Counted from the first letter of the stretch, positions 60,737 through 63,025 are shown. The stretch: DNA of 64,000 bases from Lachnospiraceae bacterium (GCA_022794265.1 JAAWEK010000010.1:5049-69048), one strand, 5' to 3'. Notes: generated by a model from the letters alone, not told the origin. Made by a program: numbers and translations.

Positions 60737-60774
60737 GCCACAAAGAAATCAACCAGGCAGCAGGATATCCGGAT

Positions 60775-61023
60775 TTAAGTAATCAGGGTCCATAAACAAA
60801 GCTTAATATAATAACAAAGTCTTACATACCTGGTATATCCTTCAGATTCAACCAGGCATTTAAAGACATAAGAAATGTTGGATTTCTCACAGGTGCAGGA
60901 GAGAACAGTAATTGTCTTTTCGTTATATTTAAAATACAGCGGCTTAATTTCCTGATTCGTATTAAAAGAAGCAATCACCTGTATTTTATGTTCATTGGAA
61001 TTAAATTCATGGGGTTTAAGCAT
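60775..61023 (-). CDS. Hypothetical protein (82 aa), divergent from the HEPN-motif gene
   Basis: ATG 61023 lies 5 nt after GAGGTGG. AT-rich island. Confidence 0.5.
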   Translation of the reverse strand: MLKPHEFNSNEHKIQVIASFNTNQEIKPLYFKYNEKTITVLSCTCEKSNISYVFKCLVESEGYTRYVRLCYYIKLCLWTLIT

Positions 61024-61168
61024 GGTTTCCACCTCAGTTATAGTATTGTAGCTCGGGGTGGAAATTATGCAGGATGGGGAGATATATTACTTTTTTTCAG
61101 AATAATTACAACGATTAGATGATATAGGCAAAAATTTACAAAATAATACATTTTTTGAACTTTGACAA

Positions 61169-61197
61169 TTGAATATTGGTGGTAAGTGTAGTATAAT
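61169..61197 (+). promoter_or_regulatory. Promoter of the HEPN-motif gene
   Basis: TTGAAT-17 nt-TATAAT, 31 nt upstream of the start. AAAGGAG RBS. Confidence 0.7.
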
Positions 61198-61228
61198 TTT
61201 ACGATAAAAGTGATTAAAGGAGATACAT

Positions 61229-62479
61229 ATGTATAGTGGTGTTATTGGAGAATTTATAAATAATATTCAAGCTCTTAGAATATATGTAGAAAGTGTTGAA
61301 ACTATTACATTTGATCCCAATATTGATTTGGATCAAAATGAGATGATGGCATATTTAATGTGTATTGCAAAAGAAATAAAAATGAAAAATACTAATGTAG
61401 AAGAATTTGAATTTCCTGAAGGAATACCTTTAGAGGTTTGTACATCAATTAAAAAATCGATTAAGGAATTGGGTAATTATTTAGAAATAAGCGAAGATGG
61501 AACAGTAGGAACTTATAGAAGTATCCCCAAAGATATAAAGGAGCATTATATTAAATTAGAGGCAAAGCAAAGGCAAAAGGAAATTATATATAGTGGTTCA
61601 TTAATTATATTAATAACTTACTTTGAAAATATGATAGCGAAATTATTACGGTGTGATTTTCGAAAACATCCGAATAGAATGTCATTAGAAAATAAGACAG
61701 TGACATATAAAATGTTGGAGATATCAGAAAGTATAGAGGATGTTAAAAATTATCTTATTGAAGAAGAAGTAATTAGCTTAATGTATAAATCGGTAAGTGA
61801 TTGGATAGAATATTTAAAAAAGAAAATAAAGTTAAGATTAGAGTATGCATCAGACTCTTTACCGATACTAAATGAAATAATGGCAAGAAGGAATCTGATT
61901 GTTCATAACGAAGGCAAGGTTAATTCTATCTATATCAATATTGTGTCAAAAGATAATAACAGTTTCAAGATTGGAGATGTATTGTCTGTTGATAAAGAAT
62001 ATTTAAACAATACAATAAATACACTTGAATTAGTTGGTGTTTCAATTATTGTTGAAATGTGGATAAATGAAGCTGGAAAAAAGAAGGATGAAATTGATAA
62101 AATATTATCTATAATTTTTGAAGAATATTTAATATTTGAGAAATGGGAACAAGCAAAGATATTATATGAAATTTGCTTAGATTCTAAAAAGATGAGGGCA
62201 GCTGATGAACTATTATGCAAAATAAATAGATGGCAATGTTATAAATGGTTAGATCAATACGATAAGATATCCAGTGAATTAGATGAAATTGATTTATCAG
62301 GAAGTAACCCAAAGTATATATTAGGCGTATTAGCATTACAAGATAAATTTGAATATTTTTTTCAATTTTTAAGTAAGCAAAATGAAATTGGGGAAGATGA
62401 ATTAAAAGAATGGCCATTATTTAGAAAAATTAGAGAAAGTAAAGAATATTTTGAATTTTTGAAAACTAAAAACACATAA
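61229..62479 (+). CDS. HEPN-motif (Rx4H) protein with a helical C-terminal domain; candidate abortive-infection/defence effector
   Basis: 416 aa. IMARRNLIVHNEG carries R221-x4-H226. The preceding helices (ITYFENMIAKLL...VSDWIEYLKKK) resemble RiboL-PSP/Abi-type HEPN families. The gene has its own promoter and terminator. Confidence 0.6.
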   Translation: MYSGVIGEFINNIQALRIYVESVETITFDPNIDLDQNEMMAYLMCIAKEIKMKNTNVEEFEFPEGIPLEVCTSIKKSIKELGNYLEISEDGTVGTYRSIPKDIKEHYIKLEAKQRQKEIIYSGSLIILITYFENMIAKLLRCDFRKHPNRMSLENKTVTYKMLEISESIEDVKNYLIEEEVISLMYKSVSDWIEYLKKKIKLRLEYASDSLPILNEIMARRNLIVHNEGKVNSIYINIVSKDNNSFKIGDVLSVDKEYLNNTINTLELVGVSIIVEMWINEAGKKKDEIDKILSIIFEEYLIFEKWEQAKILYEICLDSKKMRAADELLCKINRWQCYKWLDQYDKISSELDEIDLSGSNPKYILGVLALQDKFEYFFQFLSKQNEIGEDELKEWPLFRKIRESKEYFEFLKTKNT

Positions 62480-62485
62480 GCATTA

Positions 62486-62530
62486 AAAACCACTAATAAT
62501 AAAATAATGTTAGTGGTTTTATTATTTTAT
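62486..62530 (+). terminator. Rho-independent terminator
   Basis: AAAACCACTAA-N13-TTAGTGGTTTT followed by ATTATTTTAT. Confidence 0.8.
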
Positions 62531-62541
62531 ATGGAGGAAAA

Positions 62542-62724
62542 ATGTATAAAAAAATGTATAAATGTAGACTATGTAAAAAAATTATTACTGAGGATTTATG
62601 TGCAGAATCGTTCGAGAGACTGAATATAAAAATACTGAATGATGCTGAATTTAAAAAAGAAAAAATACATTATTGTGACAATAACAGTATAGGTATTTTA
62701 GTGTTTATTGGAATAAAGTTTTAA
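62542..62724 (+). CDS. Small Cys-containing hypothetical protein (60 aa)
   Basis: GGAGG lies 5 nt before the ATG. CRLC pair near the N-terminus. Confidence 0.4.
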   Translation: MYKKMYKCRLCKKIITEDLCAESFERLNIKILNDAEFKKEKIHYCDNNSIGILVFIGIKF

Positions 62725-63025
62725 TAAGCAAGAGGATGCAATTTTATCTATAAATAAGAAGAAAATACAGATATATTGTACAAGGATACCTGTATAAAAT
62801 ATACAACAGCCCATTTAGGAAGGTGATTAATTTGAGATACATTGTTAAAGATGTATATAAGGAAAAAGAGGAGAAAAAGAGAATAAACTTAGTATTAAAA
62901 ATAATAGAGAAACAAATTAAAAAAGATAAATAATGCTTAACAAAGCAAGTGACAAGTTGATATTTTATAAGCAATACTTTAAAATATAATTGTGTTTACT
63001 TGCTTTATCTATAGGGAGGAATAGA

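Follow-up and report, generated by a model that had tools for sequence, protein, structure and literature searches.

A conserved prophage cassette of Lachnospiraceae encoding a HEPN_RiboL-PSP family protein and a 60-aa zinc-knuckle-like partner: a candidate abortive-infection module

The window analysed here, a stretch of 64,000 nucleotides (nt) from a Lachnospiraceae bacterium (GCA_022794265.1 JAAWEK010000010.1:5049-69048), contains a siphovirus-type prophage. Between the last early gene of this prophage and its serine recombinase, the composition turns AT-rich, as described in an earlier note made from the sequence alone; the guanine-plus-cytosine (GC) content drops from 0.42-0.48 at 54-59 kb to a trough of 0.22-0.28 at 61000-63000. 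The trough holds a cassette of two genes, the first of which encodes a HEPN-family protein of 416 amino acids (aa) and the second a zinc-knuckle-like protein of 60 aa. In the window, the GC content of the cassette is 0.255, compared with 0.404 in the 3.8 kb upstream of it. The cassette comprises the following features:

61162-61197, plus strand: cassette promoter, TTGACA / TTGAAT (61169-61174), 17-nt spacer and TATAAT (61192-61197); consensus scan and conservation
61217-61222, plus strand: ribosome-binding site (RBS) AAGGAG, read from the sequence 6 nt ahead of the ATG; the RBS column is conserved in alignment A4
61229-62479 including the stop codon, plus strand: gene of the 416-aa HEPN-family protein; open reading frame (ORF) call, homologues, selection and model
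61229-61528, plus strand: N-terminal helical domain, residues 1-100, three helices and a small beta-hairpin; the most variable part of the family
61529-62083, plus strand: HEPN domain of the RiboL-PSP subtype, residues about 101-285; Pfam PF18735
61874-61909, plus strand: predicted catalytic signature E216-x3-R220-R221-N222-x2-V225-H226-N227, containing the canonical HEPN R-[N/H/D]-x3-H
62084-62476, plus strand: conserved C-terminal helical domain, residues 286-416, with the near-invariant residues N333, K339, D355, S357, W395-P396, F398 and R402
62486-62528, plus strand: intrinsic-terminator-type hairpin between the HEPN gene and the small gene, 13-bp stem (62486-62520) and U-rich tail, folding free energy (dG) -14.9, z -3.3
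62533-62537, plus strand: RBS GGAGG of the small ORF, read from the sequence
62542-62724, plus strand: gene of the 60-aa zinc-knuckle/zinc-ribbon-like protein, C8-x2-C11 ... H43-x-C45, G51, isoelectric point 9.0; homologues and linkage

By sequence profile, the 416-aa protein is a member of the HEPN_RiboL-PSP family; the assignment holds for the family as a whole, whereas the window protein, taken singly, stays below threshold. Its residues 101-246 match positions 8-178 of the 191 positions of PF18735 with an E value of 1.3e-4, and the same profile is matched by 19 of 39 aligned homologues (best E 4.7e-8); no other family recurs. Precomputed PF18735 assignments are found on 22 of 70 full-length homologues, and protein P0062, which aligns full-length to the query, carries PF18735 without a weak mark. 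Pfam thereby returns the kind of domain at which the earlier note had guessed, namely a HEPN domain of the RiboL-PSP/Abi type. The note had further pointed to an RNLIVH (Rx4H) motif at R221-H226, which is present and invariant across the family. Conservation was counted over 147 diverse representatives with a median identity of 27% to the window protein: E216 and H226 are found in all 147, R221 in 146 and N222 in 142, the other five carrying a histidine at this position. The signature E216, R221, N222 and H226 is also invariant in alignment A1. About 0.09 RNLIVH-like motifs are expected per protein by chance, and the protein contains three histidine residues; on its own, the motif is only mildly unlikely to occur by chance. 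Its weight, like that of the promoter and related features, derives from conservation in other loci, and conservation of this kind is the pattern that would be expected of an active site.

The family is large. An exhaustive profile search returned 7,516 representative clusters, defined at 50% identity, at E <= 1e-3 and 2,300 at E <= 1e-30; the clusters mostly contain proteins of 410-470 aa that align end to end and derive from many bacterial phyla. Distant full-length relatives occur in Bacilli, Flavobacteriia, cyanobacteria, Nitrospira and Chloroflexi, and in many distant relatives, the alignment does not begin before about residue 70-115. The index of the assembly collection lists one variant of the cassette in 114 blocks, and a tblastn search of plasmids gave four matches, all to a 'hypothetical protein'. 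Searches of NCBIfam and PHROGs with the 416-aa protein gave no significant match. A cassette that is 54% identical to that of the window lies at locus L019 on a 7.5-kb contig (CAVFAM010000112.1) binned as 'Bacteroidaceae bacterium'; close relatives other than L019 are all of the Lachnospiraceae type, and its placement is probably due to a binning error or to a phage contig.

The HEPN domain is followed by a conserved domain that matches no family. AlphaFold2 predicts, with confidence, an all-helical fold for both the full-length protein (predicted local distance difference test, pLDDT, 89.1; predicted template modelling score, pTM, 0.84) and the HEPN domain alone (pLDDT 90.8), and the last long HEPN helix reaches about residue 282 in the model. 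The earlier note had seen a helical C-terminal half of about 190 aa without a family; searches of Pfam and of PDB sequences with the C-terminal domain likewise gave no match, but the domain is shorter than described, with about 130 aa (residues 286-416). Several of its residues are nearly as conserved as the predicted catalytic ones: N333 is found in 144, K339 in 141, D355 in 145, S357 in 130, W395 in 130, P396 in 143 and R402 in 139 of the 147 representatives. The domain was also considered as a second, degenerate HEPN domain, for which hhalign gave a probability of 0.6%, and as a TPR domain, for which Pfam gave no significant match; both readings were rejected. The single protein and the profiles of the family, the C-terminal domain and the small protein retrieved nothing or generic coiled-coil and C2H2 zinc-knuckle matches from PDB sequences. 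A comparison of the full-length model with the PDB by Foldseek produced only weak TPR-like noise (NprR, AimR, APC/C), and a comparison with BFVD led to a pair of uncharacterised proteins from gut phages (best E 1.6e-4).

The two genes of the cassette form one unit. In the Lachnospiraceae clade, the 60-aa ORF accompanies the HEPN gene as a conserved partner, a linkage that is newly recognised here. The small gene is located directly 3' of the HEPN gene in all Lachnospiraceae-clade loci examined except the loci L005-L010 of the P0027 lineage, and in the reverse search, a HEPN gene was found immediately upstream of every relative of the small protein that was looked up. C8, C11, H43, C45 and G51 are invariant among the homologues of the small protein, which are 56-68 aa long. 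The 60-aa protein matches phrog_16725, a PHROG without assigned function, with E 5.8e-6 and shows weak matches to zinc-knuckle, rubredoxin and zinc-ribbon families. Comparison with the sister phage gave ratios of nonsynonymous to synonymous substitution rates (dN/dS) of 0.13 (HEPN gene) and 0.10 (60-aa gene), and both genes are under purifying selection. In some loci (L033, L035, L050, L067 and L090), the HEPN gene is split into two ORFs by a frameshift, a stop codon or an assembly error; at L090 (3665-4942), the remaining prophage is otherwise the same as in intact relatives. Such sporadic split copies would fit a costly or toxic gene.

The earlier note had named two flanking ORFs as a possible partner, antitoxin or sensor, the 60-aa ORF and an 82-aa ORF; both exist, and the linkage across the clade singles out the former. 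The latter is not part of the cassette:

60775-61023, minus strand: 82-aa divergent ORF, lineage-specific

It occurs only in identical copies and in one sister phage (83% identity, dN/dS 0.16), forms a singleton cluster and has no relatives on viral contigs, where these were sought. Although probably a genuine gene, it is confined to this phage lineage and was rejected as a partner of the HEPN protein. A minimal nucleotidyltransferase (MNT) partner was rejected as well: Pfam finds no nucleotidyltransferase match among the neighbours, as the earlier note had claimed, and none recurs in 68 loci. The small gene is missing from the P0027 lineage and from all distant clades, and in the wider family, clustering of 370 neighbours gave no recurrent partner besides the zinc protein. 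In the P0027 lineage (L005-L010, 9404-10696), the HEPN protein is 52% identical to that of the window and is encoded in the chromosome beside ISL3 transposase genes; its gene is followed by that of a 430-aa protein without Pfam or PADLOC match and then by genes for an AAA_22/mad8-like ATPase and a ResIII fragment. The 430-aa protein may be an alternative partner in this lineage.

The cassette carries its own transcription and translation signals. Its promoter sits in a conserved block, TTGACAATTGAATATTGGTGGT..GTAGTATAAT, which is kept in the window and in L011, L012, L013, L017, L019 and L078, although the encoded proteins are only 45-55% identical. Since the consensus scan finds 32 promoter-like sites where 19.6 are expected in AT-rich DNA, the promoter match alone is weak evidence; it is the conservation of the block across independent loci that lends it support. 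Conservation of the block at 61162-61185 (alignment A4) takes in the spacer CAATTGAATATTGGTGGT, and two short palindromes, CAATTG and AATATT, lie within the block, which might act as an operator for some regulator. The 5' untranslated region (UTR) of the HEPN gene is about 25 nt long. The hairpin behind the HEPN gene was overlooked by a simple scan because its loop measures 9 nt, and terminator-type hairpins with differing stem sequences are found at the equivalent place in 9 of 12 distinct cassette sequences. Thus, the 416-aa ORF with the TTGAAT-17-TATAAT promoter, the strong RBS and the terminator that the earlier note had ascribed to it are all present on the plus strand inside the AT-rich island, and the moron architecture proposed there stands, with promoter and terminators as conserved features of a mobile cassette.

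The cassette has a GC content of 0.25-0.31 in each of the 11 loci compared, while the 4 kb that precede it range over 0.31-0.48. At least seven different prophage backbones, with serine or tyrosine integrases, carry it. The cassette ends the early/replication module, just before the packaging genes, in L012, L013, L087-90 and L105, and it precedes the integrase in L092 and in the window, where the following gene is:

63026-64000, plus strand, running past the end of the window: large serine recombinase (prophage integrase) with a YLRLS motif at its start; context only

Because the circular order is early genes, cassette, integrase/attP and TerS, the position in the window corresponds to the same early/packaging junction. 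The earlier note had explained the location by proximity to the integrase, a known hot spot for defence genes; this explanation was rejected, as other phages hold the cassette at the early-gene/terminase junction, and it is this junction that is the conserved position. In related phages without the cassette, the terminase follows immediately upon the last early gene, and in L091, the cassette lies alone among housekeeping genes in the chromosome. At L095, another low-GC cargo (ParB_N-DUF4417) occupies the same junction, where no known defence gene was seen. Being AT-rich, equipped with its own signals, present in many backbones and absent from related phages, the cassette is an accessory element and not a core phage gene. 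In the Lacrimispora xylanolytica prophage at L012 (10545-12509), genes for a 654-aa NACHT/NB-ARC (STAND) protein and a D12 methyltransferase are inserted between cassette and TerS; the NACHT protein gave no match in PADLOC. This arrangement suggests that the early/packaging junction accumulates conflict genes.

Many loci of the wider family are found among restriction-modification and other defence genes and not in recognisable prophages. P0062, for instance, adjoins a retron reverse transcriptase with PRTase, an AAA_21/PDC-M49A-like ATPase and SatD. The 148 flanking proteins of 46 loci include type I and type III restriction-modification components, three SoFic, three PbeA, AriA/PtuA-like ATPases, MADS components and PDC-S04, PDC-S11 and PDC-S24, and Pfam assigns five of them to ResIII, four to Fic and others to HSDR_N and Methylase_S; these counts are qualitative and come without a background control. 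At L105 (1-607 and 7001-8504), a prophage carries a classical Abi_2 (AbiD/F) gene beside its repressor and, where the early region ends, a HEPN/64-aa cassette; this single phage thus has two HEPN systems.

The siphovirus-type prophage of the window is genuine; TerS, TerL, portal, major head protein, tape measure protein (1,379 aa) and endolysin were all found. Its left flank consists of the host genes for ETF-alpha (24801-25874) and a DUF3810 protein (25903-27213), and TerS, which has an N-terminal helix-turn-helix motif, begins at 27806; the left border attL must lie within 27213-27806, just left of TerS. The early genes at 55767-59135 include those for a 684-aa PcfJ-like protein and for a 433-aa protein with a C-terminal DUF3850/'RNA-binding protein' PHROG domain. 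The PcfJ family is familiar from conjugative plasmids; a search for related phages via PcfJ found none. The same PcfJ-like gene also precedes the HEPN cassette of L013 and that of L103, the latter together with the DUF3850 gene. The early region further contains a tRNA-Gly (CCC) gene at 59534-59604 on the minus strand, antisense to the early ORFs around it. Just past the endolysin gene, the minus strand encodes a 215-aa DUF4352/DUF5067 protein (47395-48042), which may be another accessory gene expressed in the lysogen. A full-length copy of the recombinase contains the Pfam domains Resolvase, Recombinase, Zn_ribbon_recom and DUF4368. The continuation beyond position 64000 can be read in L001 (9798-12172): the serine recombinase, which has 533 aa and contains DUF4368, precedes a gene for a 257-aa Peptidase_S8 protein that starts at the last base of the recombinase gene. 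The same layout is found in L002-L004 and in the sister phage (L104), and the Peptidase_S8 gene may be phage cargo or the integration target.

According to the 2013 survey by Anantharaman et al. (PMC3710099), the Ribo L-PSP-HEPN family is distantly related to AbiF/AbiD. Like other members of PF18735, the window protein has a HEPN domain that spans nearly the whole profile and keeps the Rx4-6H motif. Fusion to an endoRNase L-PSP domain, after which the family was named, is found neither in the window protein nor in 39 homologues, and no ParB operon turned up at the loci inspected through their gene tables, ParB being outside the 25 commonest Pfam families in the flanks of 46 loci; however, L-PSP and ParB are associations and not requirements for membership in PF18735. 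The window protein differs from the family by the placement of its HEPN domain between an N-terminal helical and a 130-aa C-terminal domain, and by its zinc-knuckle partner in Lachnospiraceae. PF18735-type HEPN domains are found, according to a review (PMC10952713), in the validated Escherichia coli systems PD-T4-2, PD-T4-5 and PD-T7-3, which are carried by mobile elements and for which anti-phage activity was shown experimentally; PD-T4-5 is a single gene, a distant relative of AbiF/D, and acts by abortive infection (Vassallo et al. 2022). The window protein does not match the PADLOC models of these three systems at E <= 1 and differs from them in phylum, architecture and partner.

AbiD and AbiF are found in prophages and plasmids of Bacillota, in surroundings enriched in defence and mobilome genes, and AbiF of Clostridioides difficile is a prophage-borne toxic HEPN protein that is controlled by a non-coding RNA (ncRNA) (PMC12373285). 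The window protein resembles AbiD/AbiF as a single, prophage-carried HEPN-type protein of Bacillota with a putative Abi-type defence function, and prophage AbiF of C. difficile may be a close functional analogue. However, Abi_2 (PF07751) is matched neither by the window protein at E <= 1 nor by the 39 homologues at E <= 0.01; AbiF is located in the lysis module and the window cassette at the early/packaging junction, and a protein takes the place of the ncRNA. An abiF-type ncRNA antitoxin was considered and rejected, as an Rfam scan of 60300-63200 at E <= 5 gave only a chance snoRNA match; the short 5' UTR would leave no room for an ncRNA antitoxin in cis. The type VII toxin-antitoxin (TA) system HepT/MntA likewise combines a HEPN RNase toxin carrying Rx4-6H with a small adjacent partner gene, but the cassette lacks a nucleotidyltransferase, its HEPN protein is three to four times larger, and its partner is a 60-aa zinc-knuckle protein encoded past a terminator. 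Finally, DUF4145-like, EC042_2821, LA2681 and C6orf70 proteins join HEPN domains to zinc-ribbon or helical-repeat modules in conflict systems (PMC3710099). The cassette shares this theme, whereas its zinc module is a separate gene and its C-terminal domain matches neither TPR nor any other Pfam family significantly.

Sequence profile and genomic context together point to a putative defence role, and the Pfam family, the motif, the cassette signals and the defence neighbours support the gene as the candidate prophage-borne defence or Abi gene that the earlier note had proposed. The reading that we favour, with modest confidence, is that the cassette is a lysogen-expressed single-effector module for abortive infection or superinfection exclusion. 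Several results weigh against it. The window protein scores 22.3 bits against PF18735, below the Pfam gathering score of 28.4. When the full-length and the HEPN-domain models were compared with the PDB by Foldseek, neither had a hit below E 0.4, and no HEPN protein was among the hits listed by Foldseek or by the PDB sequence searches; the predicted HEPN fold is supported by sequence profile, not by structure comparison. In PADLOC-DB v2, whose models include PD-T4-2/5, PD-T7-3, ApeA, the Abi families and the PDC/HEC candidates, no family was matched at E <= 1 by the 416-aa, 60-aa or 82-aa proteins. Of the profile and structure checks that the earlier note had named, Pfam thus returned HEPN, while PADLOC gave no match and Foldseek no solved HEPN neighbour. 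The association with defence islands is qualitative, as stated above. Furthermore, a classical arrangement with antitoxin in excess would not place a terminator before the small gene, and all prophage copies are co-oriented at the end of the early operon, a position that would also fit a gene of the phage cycle.

Two other explanations were considered. The cassette might be a TA-type addiction module that stabilises the prophage or island rather than defending the host, with the HEPN protein as toxin and the 60-aa zinc protein as antitoxin. HEPN toxins are common in TA systems (PMC3710099); a predicted toxic RNase next to a small protein that is strictly linked to it within the clade would fit this picture, the conserved promoter block could be an autoregulatory operator, and the split HEPN genes are in line with toxicity. 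However, most of the family, including the distant clades and the 52%-identical P0027 lineage, lacks the small gene or any other recurrent neighbour, and because of this, the predicted RNase cannot be constitutively toxic. Co-transcription with an excess of antitoxin, as in type II systems, is likewise at odds with the predicted layout: the terminator separates the genes in 9 of 12 cassettes and the putative antitoxin is distal, so that a deficit rather than an excess of it would be expected. We regard an addiction module as unlikely, although TA and Abi roles can coexist. A second explanation, to which we assign a similarly low probability, is an RNase of the phage cycle that would shut off host mRNA, process transcripts at the early-to-late transition or destroy host defence RNA, with the zinc protein as cofactor. 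The early/packaging junction of phages often houses late-gene regulators, and the prophage cassettes are co-oriented at the end of the early/replication region, ahead of TerS/TerL or of integrase/attP and then TerS. Against this explanation, the cassette brings a promoter and terminators of its own, which are conserved, and its composition differs from that of the phage around it. The cassette is also absent from related phages and, in a tblastn search with the HEPN and 60-aa proteins, from all 50,697 deposited phage genomes, it stands alone in the chromosome at L091, and many loci of the wider family have restriction-modification or defence surroundings without a recognisable prophage.

Some HEPN families are inactive, and the protein might be a non-catalytic binding or regulatory module whose function is separate from RNA cleavage. 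The failure of Foldseek to find a catalytic HEPN neighbour is compatible with this, and the invariant polar residues of the C-terminal domain could be the real functional site. Inactive HEPN families have, however, lost the Rx4-6H motif (PMC3710099), whereas E216, R221, N222 and H226 are kept here in 142-147 of 147 representatives, which makes a non-catalytic protein highly improbable.

Under the favoured reading of a defence module, the cassette would be a mobile, autonomously transcribed moron, and its carrier a temperate phage of the siphovirus type that infects a Lachnospiraceae-type gut bacterium. In the lysogen, a sigma-A-type promoter of its own would drive production of the HEPN protein, which would be held inactive. 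Upon infection by another phage, the non-catalytic domains of the protein may sense a cue, be it a small molecule, a nucleic acid or some phage protein; HEPN domains would then pair to form a composite RNase site and cut cellular RNA, phage RNA or both, thereby aborting the infection to the benefit of the lysogen population and the resident prophage. The 60-aa zinc protein would most likely be a clade-specific accessory that binds the HEPN protein or its RNA and modulates the HEPN protein as inhibitor (antitoxin), adaptor or regulator. As the intrinsic terminator separates the two genes, it would be made by read-through and in smaller amounts than the RNase. More tentatively, and with less confidence than for the defence role of the cassette itself, the large family (at least 7,500 clusters) may represent a new single-protein Abi system that combines a RiboL-PSP HEPN domain with an undescribed C-terminal sensor (invariant N-K-D-S-WP-R) and, in gut Lachnospiraceae, with a Cys2-His-Cys micro-protein dosed by terminator read-through, a layout that, to our knowledge, has not been described for HEPN toxins.

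HEPN RNases are the effectors of Cas13, Csm6, RnlA, AbiD/F and many TA systems, and new combinations of sensor and effector have repeatedly yielded new biology and tools. What is new here is the combination of a HEPN Abi-type effector with a conserved C-terminal domain that matches no family and with a zinc micro-protein partner. If the cassette does not serve in defence, it is still a well-defined, conserved two-gene moron. If it does, it would add a sensor domain and a small-protein regulator to the HEPN repertoire and provide a family-level model for annotation pipelines, as PADLOC-DB v2 misses this family. The family is common in human-gut prophages, and a defence function would help to explain phage-phage exclusion in Lachnospiraceae, a dominant and poorly tractable group of gut bacteria.

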